Of a DNA stretch of 64,000 nt, positions 1,973 to 55,549 are shown in pieces. The DNA lies in the IMG/VR virus record IMGVR_UViG_3300012983_000037, positions 35,870 through 99,869 of that record; one strand, given 5' to 3'. Below the pieces are notes generated by a model. The model had not been told where the DNA came from and ran no database searches. It saw only the letters and a program-made list of their open reading frames with translations. The stretch comes from a virus (taxonomy: Duplodnaviria; Caudoviricetes). Both the position numbers and the translations under genes were made by a program. Each line of letters opens with the position of its first letter. Position 1 is the first letter of the stretch.

Positions 1973-4444
1973 ATGGCTAATTGGAATAAAAAATCAAAAG
2001 AAGTAGCTCAAAGGGCATTCAAAGCTGAGAACTTAGGTAGTACAATTTCAGAACTTGCTGGAGGTATTACAGGTATAGCAGATGCTGGAATTGAGAATGC
2101 TCAAATAGCAGATACTGGTGGAATACATAGCAGTATAAATGATACAGCAAATACAGAATTTGCATATGACAGCTATGACTCTTTACTTGCTGGGTATAAT
2201 CCATATGCATTACAATCAGGTGACTTTTCTCAAAAAGATGTTAGAGGAGCTACTGGTGGTGAGATGGCTATGAATACTATCTCAGGAACTCTTAGTGGTG
2301 CTGCAGCAGGTGCTCAAGTTGGAGGTCCTTGGGGAGCTATAGCAGGTGCTGCTGTTGGATTAGGTAGTGGTTTAGCTGGTATATTTTCTGGTAATGCTAA
2401 AGCAAGAAGAGAGGCTAACTTACTTAATGCAAAGGCTGAAAATGCTAATAGGCAATACATGCAAAACTTTGCATTGAATGCATCAAATATAGGTCAAGGA
2501 ATGTTTAATAGTGCTGCATTGAATCTAGCAGCAGAAGGTGGACAGCTTGATATATATGACCAATCAAAAGTTAATGCTAAGAATTTTAAAATGAAACATA
2601 AAAAATCAAGATACAAAGGCTTTGGTAATTACTATGCTTATGGTGGACAAATGATGTCAGGAGACTGGTCTAATGGTGTAGTAACAATTAATAAAGGAGA
2701 TACTCATGAAAGAAATCCTTTAGGTGGAGTTCTTATGGGAATAGACCCACAGGGTGTTCCTAATTTAGTAGAGGAAGGTGAAGTTATATTTAATGACTAT
2801 GTGTACTCTAACAGACTTAAACCTACTACTAAGCAATTAGAAGGAATGCATTTAGACCCTAAATTAGAAGGACTAACATTTGCAGAAGCAGCTAAGAAGA
2901 TTCAAGAGGAATCAGAATTAAGGCCTATGGATAACATATCTAAGAATACACTAGTAGATGGACTCACTAAACTAACCGTGATGCAAGAGGAAATTAGAAT
3001 GAAGAAGGAAAGAGCTAGGATGCTAAGAATGTTAAGACATATGGCTATACAAGAGCCACAAGAACCTCAAGAAATGCAGGAAGAGGTTCCTGGAGAAGGT
3101 GATCAAATGGCTATGGAAAATCAAGGTGCTCAAATGCCAGAAGCCCAATTCTCAGAAAGAACACCTAGAGCATATAAACAAATTCAAGAAGAAATGCCTG
3201 AACAATATGCCCATGGTGGAATGTTAGCTAATTATTTTGATGATGGTAGTAAACTTCCTCTTATTAGTAACAGTATTACTGATTTTGAATACTGGGATGC
3301 TGCTAATAATGATTATAATAGTGAATATAAGAATTGGATAAACAATACTGACTTATCTACTACAGCTAAATGGGCAGAATTAAGTAAGTTATATAAGGAT
3401 ACTTTTGGTACTGATCTTGATGTTGCTACTGCAAGAAGACTTGCTTTGGATGGAAAATATGGTAGATTCCATACTATGGTTGGTGATATGTATAAAACTC
3501 ATTTAGCAAGTTTACAGCCAGCAGATGAAACTGAAGGACCAGTAGCTATAGATCCAGTAACAAGATATATCCTTAAAGGAGCTGATGCTAATGGACTACC
3601 TGTAGAGTCTGAAATAACAGATTATGACCCTAATAGTGGTAAATATAAATTCTTAAACACTTCAGTTAAAGATAATGTAACTACTCATTATTTTAGTGCT
3701 AAGCCAGAGACACCTGAATCAGAGGGTGATACTCCTGTAGTACCTCTTGGAGATTACCCTAAAACTAATTTACTTCAATATGCACCAGCAATAGGAGGTA
3801 CTCTAACTACATTAGCTAGTTTATTCCAAAAGCCTGATACTACAAATGCAGATTTATTAGCAAAGTCTAGAAAAAATGTAAGAAGGATAAAATCAAATCC
3901 TATAGGTGGATATGCCGAATTTAATCCTTATGATGTTAATCTACAGCAGTTAAAGCTTGATAATTTAGCAGCTGGTAATATGAGAAATGCTATTAACTCA
4001 TCATCAGGTAATAGGGCAGCAGCAATGGTAGATTTACTAGCAATGAATAATCAGAGAGCATCTCAAAGTGGAGATATATATAGACAAGCATTAGAAGCTA
4101 ATGATGAACAAAGATTAAAAGTATTAGCACATAATGCAGAGATAGATAAATTTAACTCACAGGCAGATCTTACAGCTTCTCACTATAATCAGGCTGCTGA
4201 TTTACAGCTTCTTGATAATGTTCATAAAGAATTAGAAATGAGAGATACTGAAGCTATAAACCTTTCAAATACTAGAAACTCAAATATTAAAACAATGTTT
4301 GAAAATATAGGAGAAATAGGCAATACTTTATATTCAGGAGCCCAAGAGAAGTGGTTAATAGATAGAGGATATGTACCTAGTGTAGGATCTATACGTGCTA
4401 ACGGTGGTAGAATTAGAAGGAGTAAAAGAAAAAGAAAATGTTAA
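1973..4444 (+). CDS. Virion cargo/ejection protein 1 (crAss001 gp45-like)
   Basis: 823 aa; Gly/Ala-rich hydrophobic segment GAQVGGPWGAIAGAAVGLG, THERNPLGGV motif, repeated AxGG motifs; directly after muzzle gene. Confidence 0.7.
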   Translation: MANWNKKSKEVAQRAFKAENLGSTISELAGGITGIADAGIENAQIADTGGIHSSINDTANTEFAYDSYDSLLAGYNPYALQSGDFSQKDVRGATGGEMAMNTISGTLSGAAAGAQVGGPWGAIAGAAVGLGSGLAGIFSGNAKARREANLLNAKAENANRQYMQNFALNASNIGQGMFNSAALNLAAEGGQLDIYDQSKVNAKNFKMKHKKSRYKGFGNYYAYGGQMMSGDWSNGVVTINKGDTHERNPLGGVLMGIDPQGVPNLVEEGEVIFNDYVYSNRLKPTTKQLEGMHLDPKLEGLTFAEAAKKIQEESELRPMDNISKNTLVDGLTKLTVMQEEIRMKKERARMLRMLRHMAIQEPQEPQEMQEEVPGEGDQMAMENQGAQMPEAQFSERTPRAYKQIQEEMPEQYAHGGMLANYFDDGSKLPLISNSITDFEYWDAANNDYNSEYKNWINNTDLSTTAKWAELSKLYKDTFGTDLDVATARRLALDGKYGRFHTMVGDMYKTHLASLQPADETEGPVAIDPVTRYILKGADANGLPVESEITDYDPNSGKYKFLNTSVKDNVTTHYFSAKPETPESEGDTPVVPLGDYPKTNLLQYAPAIGGTLTTLASLFQKPDTTNADLLAKSRKNVRRIKSNPIGGYAEFNPYDVNLQQLKLDNLAAGNMRNAINSSSGNRAAAMVDLLAMNNQRASQSGDIYRQALEANDEQRLKVLAHNAEIDKFNSQADLTASHYNQAADLQLLDNVHKELEMRDTEAINLSNTRNSNIKTMFENIGEIGNTLYSGAQEKWLIDRGYVPSVGSIRANGGRIRRSKRKRKC

Positions 4445-4450
4445 TTAGTT

Positions 4451-5635
4451 ATGTCTAAATATTTAGAAGCAACACCAAAGTATACAGGAGTAACTCTAGA
4501 ACAAAGGTTAAAACCATTGGTCCTTTATAAGGATGAATATGATAAGCAGCAAGATGCTTATGATAAACTTTTAGAGGATACCCTTGTACTTGAAAATATA
4601 AAAGACTCTGAAGTAGATGCTGATTTATATAGGAACTACTCAGATTGGAGAGAAAAGCTTAATACATCAGCAGACTCTCTAGCATCTACAGGAATGTTGG
4701 ATATGCAGTCTCTAAGAGATTTAAGAAGGGAGTATATAAATACTTACAAACCAATGGAGGATAAATATAAGCATAGAGCTAATCTTATATTTAAACAAGC
4801 ATCAGAAGCTGGACCTGATGTAATATATAAAAGAGATTTTTCAAGAGTACCTCTTGAAGAAATTGAACTATCAGATGCTATTGAAAGTCAAAATCTTTCA
4901 GAATTATACACATCGTATACTAAAAGATGGTCAGCAGACTTTTTTGCTTCAGGTATTCCAGAAGGTAATGATGCTGAAGAAATAACAGTGGATAATGCAA
5001 TAGAAGAAATGGGATTATCAGGATACTCTGATACAGATATTGAAAGAATAAGGGAAACACTGCATGATGCCTATAATGCTGGAATTACAGGAGCAACTAA
5101 TCTTGAATTAGATAGAAGTATTAATGAAGAGAGATTAAAAGAAGCAAGAAATCCTAGTAGTACTGGTGATACAACCAACTTACTAACTTCAAGTACATAT
5201 ACAGATTCAGCAACAGGAGAATCTTATACAGTAATAAAGAAGAATGGTAAATACTATGCACCAGACGGTGTAACTGAAATCCCTGAAATGCATCTTCGTA
5301 GATACTACTCTAAATATTTTACAGATCCTGTAGTTAATGCTAAATACTCATTTGAAGGTACTAAAACAGTAAGATATAATCCTTTGGATGAAAGTACTAC
5401 GTCAGTACCTTCTGCAGTGAGTGATGCAAAAACAGTTGCCATTATTAATAAGTGGTATGGAGATAATAATAGCTGTGCATCTACTAGTCCAGCGTATGTA
5501 ACAGCTGCTGATGCTGCTGCAAAGAAATTAGGATTTGATTTAAAAGGATTATTTGCACATGGGTATACTGTAACAGTTAAAGAGACAGGTACTGGAAATA
5601 CTACTGCATACTTTATAGAAATTAATAAGATTTAA
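4451..5635 (+). CDS. Putative virion cargo protein 2
   Basis: 394 aa with helical N-terminus, between cargo 1 and the giant protein. Confidence 0.5.
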   Translation: MSKYLEATPKYTGVTLEQRLKPLVLYKDEYDKQQDAYDKLLEDTLVLENIKDSEVDADLYRNYSDWREKLNTSADSLASTGMLDMQSLRDLRREYINTYKPMEDKYKHRANLIFKQASEAGPDVIYKRDFSRVPLEEIELSDAIESQNLSELYTSYTKRWSADFFASGIPEGNDAEEITVDNAIEEMGLSGYSDTDIERIRETLHDAYNAGITGATNLELDRSINEERLKEARNPSSTGDTTNLLTSSTYTDSATGESYTVIKKNGKYYAPDGVTEIPEMHLRRYYSKYFTDPVVNAKYSFEGTKTVRYNPLDESTTSVPSAVSDAKTVAIINKWYGDNNSCASTSPAYVTAADAAAKKLGFDLKGLFAHGYTVTVKETGTGNTTAYFIEINKI

Positions 5636-34357: not shown

Positions 34358-36491
34358 TATGATATACTCTAGTTTTCTGCTCAATTCTTCTTCCTTGAGA
34401 CCAATTCTTAATTGCTGTAAGATAACCAATTACTCTATCCCACAAAGTAGTTTCAGTACTACCACACTTAGGACATTTTGTAAATGGCTGTTTAGCTATA
34501 AAGCCACAATTATCACACTCACAATTAGGAACATTGAAGGTAAAATACTTACATCCTACTAAAGCAGCATAATCTACAAGTAACTGATATTGCTTCTCAG
34601 AAAGATGAGAATCTAAGTTCAAATGTGCTGCAGAACCACCATCAAGCATATCACCACAGAAATCATTACCATGCAAATATAACTTATCAAAGATAGTTAT
34701 CTCTTCATCATTAGGTTTAAAGATGTAACTTGCATAGAGATTAGTGTCATCAGGAACCCAATATCCATCCTTCTTATCTCTATTATACATCTTTATACTT
34801 GCTGACTCACATGGTGTAAACTCTGTATTGAACATCTCTCTATTTGTTTTATGGAGAGTATTCTGCTCTTTTATAGTAGAGAAAATAAGATTACAGAAAT
34901 GTTTATATTCCTCATTCTTATTACATTCCATTCCTAGGAATTCAGCAGCCTGGTTCAATCCATTGATACCAATAGTAAGATACTGCTTCTGAAGAGCAAT
35001 GAATCCTGCTGAGTATACTGGCAACATTCCTGCATTGAATAGCTCATACAAGCATTCATTATATGCAGTTTGATACTTATATACTCTATCAAGAATACCC
35101 TCTAAGTATCTTGCAATACCAGGATATTCATCTTCAGGATGCTCTAAATACATTCTAGCATCATACTTAGTTCTTATATAATCTTGAACTATTCTATTAA
35201 GATTAAGAGTAATAACATTCTTACTGCCTGTCATTTCACCAAGTTGTCCATTAGTGAAATTAAACTGAGGCTTCTCAATCTTTGAAGAAAGTCTGCAACA
35301 AGAAGATAAACTATCAGCTGAATCACTTATATAAGTAAAGAATGAGTTTCCTTCTGAATACTCTTTACAAGTAAACTTATATAATTCATCATCTAAGAAT
35401 TTACCATCTTGATAAATAAGAGCTACTGATACTACAGGGAATGTAAGGATACACTTGAGCCTTTCTTGGTTTAGCCAATGTAGATACTCCTTTTGTAGCC
35501 AATTAAAGGAATCCCAATTAGGAGTAGTTCCATCAGGAAATTGAAAGTCACTATACATAGTGTTATAGAATGCTCTATCAAAAATAGATACATTCCAAAA
35601 TACACTCTGAGCACCCCTTGCTGCAGAAGGCTGGTTTATAGAATAAGTAATCTGCTGGAAATACTGATGAATCTGCTTCTTTATAGTAATATCTCTATTA
35701 GAGAATTGAGATATACACCTATCAAAGTATCTATGATAATCATCTCCCCATTCTTTTCTACAGAACCAATCCATACATAAGAAGAATCCAGGAGTTGCTA
35801 CAGCACCCTTATATTGAGCAGCAATAGCAAATACAAGATTAACAAACATTCCACAGAAACTGTCTATATTCTTAGGTGCTGCTGATAATCCACCCAAATC
35901 CTTAATACCATTAAGTAAGAATGGGTATAAACTAACTGCAACACAATAAGGCATACCAATCTGACTTGAAGAGTCGTGGAGATACATTACTGTATTAAAG
36001 TCTTTATGCATCTGAGAAGCATCAAAGTCTGGATACAACTCTCTAAGTTTATTCTCAAGGATCTTAAGATTAATACTTACATTATCCTCCTTATGAATCT
36101 CTGCATTAAGCACTGCTATATTATGGTTACTTACATTGCTATTATCATCAATAGTAGCATCTGCAGTATTACCACTTTCAGCATATCTATTTATAAAGTC
36201 AATCTTCTTCTGAGCATATTCTCTGATATTCTTATGCTTATCTCTATATAGAATATAAGCTTTAGCTGCTTCAAAGCATTTACTATCCATAAGGACCTTC
36301 TCTACAGAATCTTGAATAATCTCAACAGTAGTATTCTCAGTTATACTAGCAATCATGCTTTGTAACCTATTGAATACTTTTGTTGGGACTTCTTGACCTA
36401 CAGAACTAAAAGCCTTTTTAACAGCTAAGAATATCTTCTCAGAGTCAAAATCAACCATTCTATAATCTCTCTTTAATACTTTAATTGCCAT
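34332..36491 (-). CDS. nrdD: Class III anaerobic ribonucleotide reductase with ATP cone
   Basis: N-terminal ATP cone, SSCCRL, CxxC...CxxC, RVIGYL glycyl-radical loop. Confidence 0.93.
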   Translation of the reverse strand: MAIKVLKRDYRMVDFDSEKIFLAVKKAFSSVGQEVPTKVFNRLQSMIASITENTTVEIIQDSVEKVLMDSKCFEAAKAYILYRDKHKNIREYAQKKIDFINRYAESGNTADATIDDNSNVSNHNIAVLNAEIHKEDNVSINLKILENKLRELYPDFDASQMHKDFNTVMYLHDSSSQIGMPYCVAVSLYPFLLNGIKDLGGLSAAPKNIDSFCGMFVNLVFAIAAQYKGAVATPGFFLCMDWFCRKEWGDDYHRYFDRCISQFSNRDITIKKQIHQYFQQITYSINQPSAARGAQSVFWNVSIFDRAFYNTMYSDFQFPDGTTPNWDSFNWLQKEYLHWLNQERLKCILTFPVVSVALIYQDGKFLDDELYKFTCKEYSEGNSFFTYISDSADSLSSCCRLSSKIEKPQFNFTNGQLGEMTGSKNVITLNLNRIVQDYIRTKYDARMYLEHPEDEYPGIARYLEGILDRVYKYQTAYNECLYELFNAGMLPVYSAGFIALQKQYLTIGINGLNQAAEFLGMECNKNEEYKHFCNLIFSTIKEQNTLHKTNREMFNTEFTPCESASIKMYNRDKKDGYWVPDDTNLYASYIFKPNDEEITIFDKLYLHGNDFCGDMLDGGSAAHLNLDSHLSEKQYQLLVDYAALVGCKYFTFNVPNCECDNCGFIAKQPFTKCPKCGSTETTLWDRVIGYLTAIKNWSQGRRIEQKTRVYHNGHRISEE

Positions 36492-50672: not shown

Positions 50673-50698
50673 ACTTTTTGGTTTAAAAGTGTTATTAG

Positions 50699-50769
50699 TT
50701 ACTCACTGAGGATTCGAACCTCAACTAAAAGAACCAAAATCTCTTGTGCTGCCATTACACCAGTGAGCA
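50699..50769 (-). tRNA. tRNA-Gln(UUG)
   Basis: TGCTCAC/GTGAGTA acceptor, AGAGA-TTTTGGT-TCTTT anticodon arm, TGAGG-TTCGAAT-CCTCA T arm. Confidence 0.9.
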
Positions 50770-53263: not shown

Positions 53264-54898
53264 TTATATGACTACTTTTCTAACTTTGTCAATATGTGCA
53301 TTTGGATTGAATTCATTTGATGCAATATCATCAAATAGTTTATATCCATATCCAAAGTAATACTGAACTTTGTCAGAATTCTTTACAGGAGTTGTACCAT
53401 ATGCAGCCAAATCTATAGCATAAATGTATGGAGAACATACCTTTCTAATATAGTTTTGATATGCATTTCTTGAACAACCATAGTTAGCCTCATTGTCTGA
53501 AAGAAGTATAATTCTATCATACTTTTTACCAGCTCTAGTTGCACAATTAAATGCTTCTGCAATACTAGTACCTCCCATATTAGTATTTGATATTACTCTA
53601 CCTAAATCAAATACTGAACTGAATAAGTGAGAAGTGTAGTCAAAATATTCTGCTCTTGAACCAAATCTAATAACATCTGCATTAGTTGCTTTTGCTATTG
53701 TTGCAGCAAGAAGTCCTGCCTTTTCACAAGCAGTATGTCTCATTGCAGTTTTACCATTACGACATCCCATATGCATTGATCCTGAACAATCAATCATAAT
53801 AAGAGTCTTTCCTGGTAAGGCTTCTTTAAGATTAGGTATTGCTAATTCATAACCCTTACGAAGTGCTTCTTTTACCCTATTGGCATTTACATTAGCATTA
53901 AATTCTTCTGTAAGGATCTCATAAGCAATATCCATTTGATAAGGCTGAATCATTCCCTTCTTGATAAGTTCACCATTAGATAATAGTTTACAAAGAGAAC
54001 TAATTACTTCTTCTCTTGGGGATTTAACCATGTTTCTAATGTTTCTTAATGCAGCAAGAATACCAAGTTTACCCTCTTTAAGTAAGGCTTCCCAGTTATC
54101 ATTCTTTGCCTCAGTAAGAACTTTTTCTGCTTCTTCCTTATCTAATTTACCTTCCTTAACTGCTTTAGCAACTATTTGACCTGCCTCTGAATTAGCCACT
54201 TCCCAAGTATCTGCTGATACAGTAATACCTCTCATCAATGCATCAAGTACCTTCATTTCCTCACCATTAATAGTGATAGTAGCACTTGAATTAGATGATT
54301 TAGGATGAACTAAATTAGAGATGTCAATGATGGATTTCTTATATTTAGACAATTGATAAGTATCCAAAGATTCAATTGCTTTCGCAAATCCTTTCTTCAT
54401 TGAATTAGTAAGAACACTATTATTCAATGCAGAAAAGACATCTTTAATCTCTGACATATCATCAGGTCTAAATATACATCCTCCTTGCTGAGCCTTTTTG
54501 TTAAATGGTCCATAGAACCTTTTTGCAAATTCTTTTCCACTAATAAATGGAGCCAACAATGCAGCGGCTAAATGATTGATAGACCTCATTCCATCTCTCA
54601 TACATCTTGAATAGACAATTGCCTGAGCAACAAAATAAGGATCTTTAAGACCTAATCTTTCAACAAGATCTCTCAATTCCTGCATTGTTTCTGATTCTGA
54701 ACGATAATATTGAGGCTCTAACTTAATAGTGTTAAGCATTGCAAGTAACCTCAACTCATCTTCCAAAGAATATGCAGAATAACCCTGTCTATTTACAGTA
54801 TCCTCTACTGGAATAGAATTGGCTTCTACAATTCTTTCTTTTGGTGGAATAGCACCAAGTGCACTCTTTAATTGTGCATTTCTGTCTTTCATTTTCAT
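53264..54898 (-). CDS. Ro60/Rsr-like TROVE-domain RNA-binding protein with vWA domain
   Basis: 544 aa from ATG 54898; VNRQGYSAY, YSRCMRDGMRS, TWE, AALRNIRN, MIDCSGSM (MIDAS), GGT, ILLSDNE. Confidence 0.9.
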   Translation of the reverse strand: MKMKDRNAQLKSALGAIPPKERIVEANSIPVEDTVNRQGYSAYSLEDELRLLAMLNTIKLEPQYYRSESETMQELRDLVERLGLKDPYFVAQAIVYSRCMRDGMRSINHLAAALLAPFISGKEFAKRFYGPFNKKAQQGGCIFRPDDMSEIKDVFSALNNSVLTNSMKKGFAKAIESLDTYQLSKYKKSIIDISNLVHPKSSNSSATITINGEEMKVLDALMRGITVSADTWEVANSEAGQIVAKAVKEGKLDKEEAEKVLTEAKNDNWEALLKEGKLGILAALRNIRNMVKSPREEVISSLCKLLSNGELIKKGMIQPYQMDIAYEILTEEFNANVNANRVKEALRKGYELAIPNLKEALPGKTLIMIDCSGSMHMGCRNGKTAMRHTACEKAGLLAATIAKATNADVIRFGSRAEYFDYTSHLFSSVFDLGRVISNTNMGGTSIAEAFNCATRAGKKYDRIILLSDNEANYGCSRNAYQNYIRKVCSPYIYAIDLAAYGTTPVKNSDKVQYYFGYGYKLFDDIASNEFNPNAHIDKVRKVVI

Positions 54899-54932: not shown

Positions 54933-55075
54933 ATAATAGAGAAAGTGTTTAGAGAATTAAAGAAATAAAGATTACAAGTCTTTCGCATGACCATTCTGCT
55001 ATTTCGTGAAAATTGTCACAAAAGTTGGAGTCGAACCAACATAAATCGATGAACCTCTAAACTGACTACTATTAT
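54933..55075 (-). ncRNA. Y-RNA-like RNA 3 with circularly permuted tRNA (T arm, closed acceptor, D arm, anticodon UGU)
   Basis: ATAATAG/CTATTAT and GTTTAGAG/CTCTAAAC stems enclose GTTGG-TTCGACT-CCAAC, TTTTGTGA-loop-TCACGAAA, TAGCAGAATGGTCATGC, AAAGA-CTTGTAA-TCTTT. Confidence 0.85.
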
Positions 55076-55220: not shown

Positions 55221-55361
55221 AAGTTCTGAAGAATGGATTAAAGGGATAAAAAATTCATTAATGCTGGAATCGAACCAACTACCTTAAGTACCCAAAAACT
55301 TACGCTCTAACCAAATGAGCTAATCAATGCGAAGTAACCCTTTAAATTACTATCAGAACTT
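55221..55361 (-). ncRNA. Y-RNA-like RNA 1 enclosing a complete tRNA-Pro(UGG)-like cloverleaf
   Basis: AAGTTCTGA/TCAGAACTT and TTAAAGGG/CCCTTTAA stems enclose CATTGAT/ATTAATG acceptor, D arm, TAAGT-TTTTGGGT-ACTTA, GTTGG-TTCGATT-CCAGC. Confidence 0.85.
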
Positions 55362-55367
55362 ATATTT

Positions 55368-55549
55368 TTAGTAATAACCTACCTCATCTCGTCCAATCTC
55401 AACTTGAGACTAAAGCCTCTTAAGTGACTTTCTTAAGCATGCCTTGGTTATAGTCACTTAGCAAGTGTTATATGGCGTTAATAGCTATTAAAGAGACCTA
55501 TAACTCTAATGCTGGTTTTACCCACCATCTGGGATATGGTTATTACTAA
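55368..55549 (-). ncRNA. Candidate structured ncRNA (~182 nt rod, possibly 6S-like)
   Basis: Perfect 12-bp terminal repeat TTAGTAATAACC/GGTTATTACTAA, inner GGTCTCTT/AAGAGGCT and TAAGTGACT/AGTCACTTA helices; no ORF; strand assumed from neighbours. Confidence 0.55.

Follow-up and report, generated by a model that had tools for sequence, protein, structure and literature searches.

A phage RNA linked to a Ro60 gene as a probable Y-RNA-like partner displaying a complete, non-decoding tRNA-shaped fold

Ro60 and Y RNAs are conserved from bacteria to humans, and to our knowledge the tRNA-like domain of bacterial Y RNAs is still without a known function. We analysed an RNA element of 141 nt encoded next to a Ro60 gene in the IMG/VR virus record IMGVR_UViG_3300012983_000037 (Duplodnaviria; Caudoviricetes), within a stretch of 64,000 nt (positions 35,870 to 99,869 of the record) that we call the window and whose numbering is used throughout. 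The element is a complete tRNA-shaped cloverleaf with an 8-nt anticodon loop, enclosed in a closing scaffold. We consider it probable that it is a Y-RNA-like Ro60 partner whose effector is a tRNA mimic that does not decode.

YrlA RNAs have been described beside Ro60 genes of more than 250 bacteria and phages (Chen et al. 2014, PMC4201824). Their tRNA-like parts follow in the order T arm, closed acceptor stem, D arm, and they carry a 5´ GNCGAAN0-1G motif (PMC4201824). Yrn1 of D. radiodurans has the orientation opposite to that of YrlA and an anticodon-like arm with a 6-nt loop (PMC4201824). There is thus precedent for tRNA-like effector domains in bacterial Y RNAs (PMC4201824). In phages, the Ro60 of Thermus phage phiLo binds two upstream RNAs bearing CGAA (PMC12135203).

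Among these systems, Yrn1, which is bound by Rsr/Ro60 and tethers PNPase, shares several features with our element. Both are RNAs linked to a Ro60 gene and closed by a 5´/3´ stem, both keep the natural order of D arm, anticodon-like arm and T arm, and both have an off-size loop (6 nt in Yrn1, 8 nt here; PMC4201824). Unlike Yrn1, the element is a complete, high-scoring cloverleaf with a 7-bp acceptor, it is encoded by a phage and it occurs in arrays. Its handle, by which we mean the two closing helices, the internal loop (5´ UAGU(C)A facing 3´ UUCU) and the junction motif UUACUUCG, also differs from Yrn1, to which we found no homology at the level of sequence or covariance model. YrlA (RF02553; Salmonella, Mycobacterium and mycobacteriophages) shares with the element its place beside a Ro60 gene, a tRNA-like domain with conserved D- and T-arm nucleotides and its occurrence in phages; but YrlA joins the Ro stem at the anticodon position, whereas the element joins it at the acceptor end, in the natural order acceptor, D arm, anticodon arm, T arm, acceptor. 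RF02553 has no match at E <= 10 in the whole phage and none at E <= 1 in 48-60 kb of the window, and the CGAA / GNCGAAN0-1G motif is absent from the handle consensus. Covariance model, domain order and motif thus all place the element outside YrlA, although one of its sister RNAs (54933-55075) does have a YrlA-like order. The phiLo system (Yrl1/Yrl2; PMC12135203; PDB 9L5Y, 9KOP) likewise combines a phage Ro60 homologue with small RNAs encoded upstream, but these are stem-bulge-stem RNAs with CGAA for which no tRNA cloverleaf is reported, and their sequences are unrelated to ours. The element matches known Y RNAs in context and architecture, its topology being that of Yrn1 but with a complete tRNA. 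A literature search found no paper describing this handle or this class of RNA.

From the ends inwards, the minimum-free-energy fold of the 141 nt has an outer helix of 9 bp, an internal loop of 7x8 nt, an inner helix of 8 bp and a junction of 8x10 nt that leads to the cloverleaf (Table 1). Its energy is -34.8 kcal/mol (z = -3.65), and none of 200 shuffled sequences folds as well. ARAGORN reports a tRNA with a 4-base 'anticodon' ttgg, that is an 8-nt loop, and the Rfam tRNA model (RF00005) scores 53.2 bits (gathering score 29), its alignment showing one additional base in the anticodon loop. The cloverleaf bears U8, A14, G18G19 and the GUUCGAUU T loop, and its variable loop is AGGUA. By its 7-bp acceptor, full set of arms and conserved tertiary nucleotides it conforms to RF00005; by its loop of 8 instead of 7 nt it departs from a decoding tRNA. 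Comparison of 16 relatives agrees with the drawn structure: 91.5% of cells are paired against 35-52% when the partners are slid, and both-sided changes occur in 32 of the 38 pairs, including 6 of 7 acceptor and 7 of 8 inner-helix pairs. The 5´ strand of the outer helix is invariant across 9 close relatives and covaries in the alignment of 16. RNAalifold, run on a MAFFT alignment, recovered the D, anticodon and T arms and the inner 4 bp of the inner helix; it missed the AU-rich acceptor and the outer helix, for which the pair counts from the 16 relatives are the basis.

Table 1. Positions of the element, its parts and the neighbouring features in the window
Feature	Position	Strand	Basis or remark
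Element, whole RNA of 141 nt	55361-55221	minus	about 320 nt upstream of the Ro60/TROVE gene, co-oriented
Outer helix, 5´ strand AAGUUCUGA, 9 bp	55353..55361	minus	pairs with 55221-55229
Internal loop, 5´ side UAGUAAU	55346..55352	minus	family consensus R-G-U-A-G-U-(C)-A, 74 distinct members
Inner helix, 5´ strand UUAAAGGG, 8 bp	55338..55345	minus	pairs with 55238-55245
Single-stranded junction motif UUACUUCG	55330..55337	minus	conserved; directly abuts tRNA position 1
Complete tRNA-shaped cloverleaf	55255..55329	minus	ARAGORN, Rfam, covariation in all four arms
Acceptor CAUUGAU/AUUAAUG, 7 bp including one G.U	55323-55329 with 55256-55262	minus
D arm GCUC-AUUUGGUUA-GAGC	55304-55320	minus	read from sequence
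Anticodon arm, stem UAAGU/ACUUA, 8-nt loop UUUUGGGU (55290-55297)	55285..55302	minus	hypervariable part
T arm GUUGG-UUCGAUU-CCAGC	55263-55279	minus	read from sequence
Discriminator A, no CCA	55255	minus	read from sequence
3´ junction AUUUUUUAU, U-rich, between discriminator and inner helix	55246..55254	minus	sequence not conserved
Inner helix, 3´ strand CCCUUUAA	55238..55245	minus	fold, covariation
Internal loop, 3´ side UCCAUUCU	55230..55237	minus	family consensus Y-N-U-U-C-U
Outer helix, 3´ strand UCAGAACUU, then U run	55221..55229	minus	fold, covariation
Sister RNA, same scaffold: tRNA body (anticodon GCA) without acceptor helix	55078..55211	minus	model R1, 90.9 bits
Sister RNA, same scaffold: permuted insert	54933..55075	minus	sequence reading; partial Rfam tRNA match, 26.3 bits
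Ro60/TROVE + vWA protein gene, 544 aa, ATG at 54898	53264..54898	minus	presumed protein partner of the element
Strong terminator	53132-53103	minus	downstream of the Ro60 gene

An earlier note on this DNA, made from the sequence alone, had described the cloverleaf with its 7-bp acceptor, its D and T arms, the 8-nt loop, the lack of CCA and the enclosing scaffold, and all of these are present. Its label 'tRNA-Pro-like' is ambiguous. The loop is indeed one base from the Pro loop UUUGGGU, but it is equally one base from UUUUGGU, the loop of the phage's own tRNA-Gln(UUG) and of the orthologues in L209/L210 (L numbers denote the compared contigs), so that the Pro label is only one of two equally close descriptions. 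That tRNA-Gln (50698-50769, minus strand) has U1-A72, discriminator A and the UUUUGGU loop with G37. U1-A72 and A73 recur in several orthologues of the element, and the loop common to the tRNA-Gln and the L209/L210 orthologues suggests, as far as sequence can tell, a Gln-type ancestry of the class with a full acceptor.

The element belongs to a large phage family. The same RNA design lies beside the Ro60 gene in phages in which the protein is only 30-64% identical to that of the window, with the 5´ to 3´ layout outer helix, (G)UAGU(C)A, inner helix, UUACUUCG, insert, inner helix, ..UUCU.., outer helix. Four kinds of insert occur: the full cloverleaf with acceptor, as in the element; a tRNA body that lacks an acceptor helix and is joined straight to UUACUUCG; a permuted, YrlA-like insert; and a plain hairpin. 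The junction motif is found with every one of them. Because the same handle carries inserts that lack the acceptor, are permuted or are mere hairpins, it is an independent module that does not require a decoding tRNA. We built a covariance model, R1, from the full-cloverleaf type; it gave 107 matches representing 74 distinct sequences. In 676 kb of Ro60 loci there are about 60 full-length matches of at least 60 bits, while in 867 kb of other viral contigs such matches occur only on L099, which derives from a Ro60-carrying contig. Weaker full-length matches lie on L073, likewise derived from a Ro60-carrying contig, and a single 54-bit match lies on L070, a contig that was not checked for Ro60. 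Recurrent adjacency to a Ro60/TROVE gene, an end-pairing stem, a conserved internal loop and a distal effector module are thus found together, as in Y RNAs in the broad sense.

Loops of 7 nt occur in 68 of the 74 distinct members and loops of 8 nt in the other 6. Members with a full acceptor mostly retain U33 and G36G37, which results in Gln-, Pro- or Leu-like loops, and the acceptor-less members retain the canonical Y-U-NNN-A37. The G36G37 pair was considered as a possible pointer to TrmD; the phage's real tRNA-Gln has G36G37 too, and the pair is probably a matter of ancestry, not a signal. The full-acceptor class comprises about 40 distinct copies in phages with Ro60 proteins 30-60% identical, so it is old and widespread; the proposal that the element shows how inserts were captured from ordinary tRNA genes finds no support as regards a recent event. 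An exact-pattern search found no near-identical copies in the viral_contigs or metagenome_contigs sets, which may leave out the records closest to the window, and a loose pattern, GTAGTCAN{6,14}TACTTCG, was dropped as it returned mostly chance matches.

The element differs from the true tRNAs in the behaviour of its anticodon arm. The handle is under strong purifying selection and the D and T arms and the acceptor helix are conserved, while the anticodon arm changes rapidly and yet stays a hairpin. Among 9 relatives, 1 of 32 columns varies in the 5´ scaffold, against 8 of 8 in the anticodon loop and 8 of 10 in the anticodon stem. The 9 distinct copies of the close clade comprise 3 with 8-nt loops (the window, L203 and L207) and 6 with 7-nt loops; the latter read UUAGGGU (L206, L218/L219, L220), UUAGGGA (L221), UUUUGGU (L209/L210) and CUCUUAA (L204/L205). 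The clade in which UUAGGGU, UUUUGGU, CUCUUAA and UUCAGGGU loops appear has Ro60 genes 81-98% identical, and at every loop change the anticodon stem is re-paired. ARAGORN 'anticodons' of the orthologues are ttgg, ctt, agg, cagg and ttg, so the conserved anticodon of a decoding tRNA is not found here. In contrast, the tRNAs Leu(taa), Met(cat) and Glu(ttc) of these contigs have constant anticodons: in the true Leu and Met tRNAs 37-39 columns vary, mostly by compensated stem changes, and the anticodon loops are almost invariant. Six phages with Ro60 genes at least 96.9% identical differ in 13 of 18 anticodon-arm columns, compared with 13.8% of Ro60 third-codon positions (Fisher p = 7e-8, to be read with the columns being non-independent and at least 3-4 events being needed). 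Orthologues of the sister RNA with the GCA anticodon show the same replacement of the whole arm (gca, agt, tgt, tat). Off-size loops are reported by ARAGORN in 5 of 66 scaffolded tRNAs and in 3 of 489 free tRNAs of the same loci (Fisher p = 9e-4).

Among the orthologues, pair 1-72 may be C-G, U.G or U-A, and A, U and C all occur as discriminator. Acceptor and discriminator do not co-vary with the 'anticodon' in a manner that fits any one synthetase. We read the 8-nt loop not as a designed feature but as a symptom of an anticodon arm under relaxed or diversifying constraint. Turnover of the arm above the synonymous rate could be due to gene conversion between paralogues with near-identical D and T arms, or to selection.

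We suggest the following model. The handle would be held by Ro60, with the UAGUAAU side of its internal loop as the presumed contact, and the displayed part would be the full tRNA-shaped fold, attached to the handle at its acceptor end. The mimic would then bring or tether a tRNA-recognising factor to Ro60, or present Ro60 to the tRNA-handling machinery, with no decoding involved. By analogy, Yrn1 acts with PNPase and YrlA with tRNA-modifying enzymes, and the display may recruit tRNA-recognising proteins in a similar way. The individual units would be cut from a long transcript that extends from the tRNA cluster as far as the terminator behind Ro60. Under this model the anticodon arm need only be a hairpin; it is therefore free to change or be swapped in sequence, and even in the length of its loop (6, 7 or 8 nt). 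Support comes also from the position of the element, which lies co-oriented just upstream of the Ro60 gene and forms an array with two further RNAs built on this scaffold. The 'non-decoding decoy' that the earlier note offered as one of two options is supported by the facts that the arm is the least conserved part, that the anticodons of neighbouring tRNAs are constant and that odd loops are enriched in scaffolded tRNAs. Several points weigh against the model. This particular copy is a perfect tRNA body with a 7-bp acceptor, C1-G72, A73 and G35/G36-like bases, a combination that we take to be the bacterial tRNA-Pro identity set, and charging of the element after processing is conceivable. The anticodon arm outpaces near-neutral sites, which is more than an unconstrained spacer would predict and hints at selection or cassette exchange. 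The hold of Ro60 on the handle is something we infer, not a matter of experiment or structure. No Rfam Y-RNA or YrlA model matches (Y-RNA at E <= 1, in 48-60 kb of the window), and the GNCGAA/CGAA motif found in the Y RNAs known from bacteria and phages (PMC4201824, PMC12135203) is missing from the handle.

The most trivial explanation of the odd loop would be an assembly artefact, in which a true loop of 7 nt gained a base through a homopolymer error in the U or G run. The loop does consist of a U4 run beside a G3 run, which is indel-prone in some sequencing chemistries. However, the independent ENA assembly L203 (Ro60 99% identical in amino acids and 98.2% in nucleotides) has the identical loop UUUUGGGU on the stem CAAGU/ACUUG, a compensated change relative to UAAGU/ACUUA of the window, and two separate assemblies, L207 and L208, carry a different 8-nt loop, UUCAGGGU, with the extra base outside any homopolymer. 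Three more family members have 8-nt loops (L214:2049-2190, L211:1307-1446 and L133:5804-5945, with UAGAUCAA, AAUUGGGU and AUUUAGGA, respectively), although for the L211:1307-1446 copy, present in L211/L212, the 2-base 'anticodon' (tg) of ARAGORN means a 6-nt loop against the 8-nt AAUUGGGU of the hairpin parse, so that this loop is off-standard with its size not settled. An assembly error is thus very unlikely, and we take the loop to be genuine. A genuine 8-nt loop could belong to a working tRNA: RNase P and a 3´ nuclease would free a molecule of about 75 nt, which would be CCA-tailed and charged and would serve as a +1 suppressor (CCAA or CCCA) or as a Pro or Gln tRNA. Loops of 8 nt in tRNA-Pro (sufA6, sufB2) do cause +1 frameshifting, and these suppressors share with the element the 8-nt loop with UGG/GGG, C1-G72 and A73. 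The canonical cloverleaf features listed above and the supposed Pro identity elements C1-G72 and A73 would suit such a role, no other tRNA-Pro was found in the phage, and its true tRNAs do not encode CCA either. M. smegmatis YrlA, which has a 7-bp acceptor, is cut by RNase P and gains CCA in vivo (PMC4201824). This precedent is also the one support for the other option of the earlier note, a Ro-gated precursor that RNase P or 3´ processing would release. On the other hand, the sufA6/sufB2 suppressors are free, processed and charged tRNAs, whereas the element sits in a conserved, Ro60-linked handle with unconserved loop length. Neither loop size nor 'anticodon' is kept even between phages with 97-99% identical Ro60 proteins. 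True tRNAs on the same contigs show the reverse, with variable stems and an invariant loop. Among the orthologue 'anticodons', several (AGG, AUU, AUG; all with A34) are abnormal for bacteria, and the sister RNAs that lack an acceptor stem on the same handle cannot be tRNAs. Of the two weak candidates from a scan for +1 shifts at CCAA/CCCA, the first has an ordinary overlapping start and the second is a startless frame; no convincing 0/+1 gene pair or split gene requiring the shift was found. With 7-nt loops in the nearest relatives as well, the association with frameshift suppression made in the earlier note finds no backing, and we regard a working tRNA as improbable.

A different role for the arm is suggested by its rapid turnover. 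The Ro60 particle might show a tRNA-like anticodon stem-loop that absorbs, senses or misdirects anticodon nucleases of the host or other enzymes acting on the anticodon loop. The turnover would be driven by an arms race or by exchange of cassettes with other tRNA genes, and 8-nt loops might be uncleavable or trapping. The excess of arm changes over third-codon changes in the six phages, the compensated changes that keep the stem paired, the canonical features that most loops retain (U33 with G36G37 or A37) and the whole-arm swaps in the sister RNA are all as such bait would have them. Defences that cleave tRNAs, and phage tRNAs that escape them by changes in the anticodon loop, are documented (PMC10264068, PMC11555353, PMC11464382), cellular Ro60 and Y-RNA genes occur in RNA-repair operons regulated by damaged tRNAs (PMC7790460), and one relative has a gene of the RNA-repair-associated RlaP family beside Ro60. 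Yet this evidence is wholly circumstantial. Searches of the window phage found no RtcB, RlaP, Rnl2-type ligase or CCA-adding enzyme. Gene conversion between paralogues with identical D and T arms could equally account for the fast change and needs no selection, and there are clades with a stable loop, such as UUUUGGU shared by L173, L180, L182 and L183. We therefore hold bait for anticodon-targeting factors to be unlikely, if clearly less so than a working tRNA. Slightly more doubtful still is the specific form of it in which the arm serves as a 'bait' cassette in rapid exchange, turned over faster than synonymous sites, that intercepts or reports on host enzymes attacking or modifying anticodon loops. 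Our preference remains with the non-decoding mimic displayed by Ro60.

The neighbouring gene encodes a Ro60 homologue with the TROVE HEAT-repeat ring and the vWA/MIDAS domain. In a phmmer search against PDB its best match among solved structures is the phiLo Ro60 (9l5y, E 2e-11, residues 70-559), and it also matches Xenopus Ro60 (1yvp, E 1.5e-4) and human Ro60. PHROG 850 ('RNA-binding protein') matches with E 1e-31, Pfam vWA_Ro60 scores 27.6 bits, 0.1 below the cut-off of 27.7, and PF05731 (TROVE) and PF25045 are present in its close relatives. Its longest open reading frame (ORF) begins at 54994, which would make it overlap the third scaffolded RNA. Since every database relative begins at the MKMKDRN methionine, the ATG listed in Table 1 is almost certainly the true start. 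Relatives of the protein at 99%, 97% and 82-84% identity came from ENA and Logan assemblies, and it is their contigs that were compared. In one relative with 78% Ro60 identity (L211/L212, 4316-5482) the gene directly after Ro60 is of the RlaP family (PF10127), which is associated with RNA-repair operons; the window phage has no such gene.

All features near the element lie on the minus strand, in the 5´ to 3´ order tRNA-Leu(taa), tRNA-Met(cat), tRNA-Glu(ttc), a rod-like RNA of about 180 nt, the element, the two other scaffolded RNAs, the Ro60 gene and the terminator. The rod-like RNA fills the gap between tRNA-Glu and the element (55368-55549); it is closed by a perfect 12-bp helix, UUAGUAAUAACC ... 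GGUUAUUACUAA, has neither an ORF nor an Rfam match and looks like a structured RNA of unknown family. The sister RNA with the GCA anticodon has a mismatched acceptor in the Rfam tRNA alignment. In the permuted sister the insert runs T arm, closed acceptor hairpin, D arm, anticodon-like hairpin, and orthologues of it are present at the Ro60 loci of relatives. A sigma-70 promoter scan, with 15 sites found against 18.7 expected from shuffles, gave no transcript start. The whole virus record has 99,869 bp with direct terminal repeats and 33% G+C, and it encodes very large ORFs of 1,780-2,603 aa and an anaerobic ribonucleotide reductase; from these features the phage looks like a crAss-sized phage of an anaerobe. 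Against named phages, blastn with the RNA island found similarity only through ordinary tRNAs of crAss-like phages.

Some observations concern other large phages. In Bacteroides phage crAss001 (MH675552; L222, covered at 3659-5077, 5170-5262, 5345-5503 and 348-501) gp96 is annotated as a TROVE protein and is followed by a non-coding gap of 900 nt. The gap contains a hairpin with handle-like motifs (UAGU, UUACUUC, UUCUU; R1 35.7 bits) and also a tRNA-like RNA, which has an acceptor of 7 bp and whose anticodon arm holds an 82-nt insertion. A pseudo-tRNA annotated in this phage as t25 '(taat)', with a 4-base anticodon, is a full-length R1 match of 54 bits with poorly paired handle helices, which leaves its membership uncertain. 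In L004 (identical to L128) an HNH-like ORF between the scaffolded RNAs, at about 2003-2730, has in-frame TAG codons, and the locus carries a tRNA with the anticodon tca; other relatives carry the anticodon cta. Judging by these sequences, several of the large phages probably use stop-codon recoding.

Taken together, in the class of phage Ro60 partner RNAs that the element represents, a complete tRNA attached by its acceptor end serves as the mimic. Such RNAs are labelled by gene finders as tRNAs of unknown or shifting specificity. Some phage 'tRNAs' or 'pseudo-tRNAs with 4-base anticodons' near TROVE genes are thus probably not tRNAs, which affects inferences about codon usage and suppressor tRNAs. 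The contrast between an invariant handle and a hypervariable arm points to a part that is bound and a part that is exposed to selection, and it makes the function testable; cultured crAss-like phages with a TROVE gene, such as crAss001, are a possible test system. If the idea of a bait cassette were true, it would give Ro60/Y-RNA particles a direct role in the conflict between phage and host over tRNAs.

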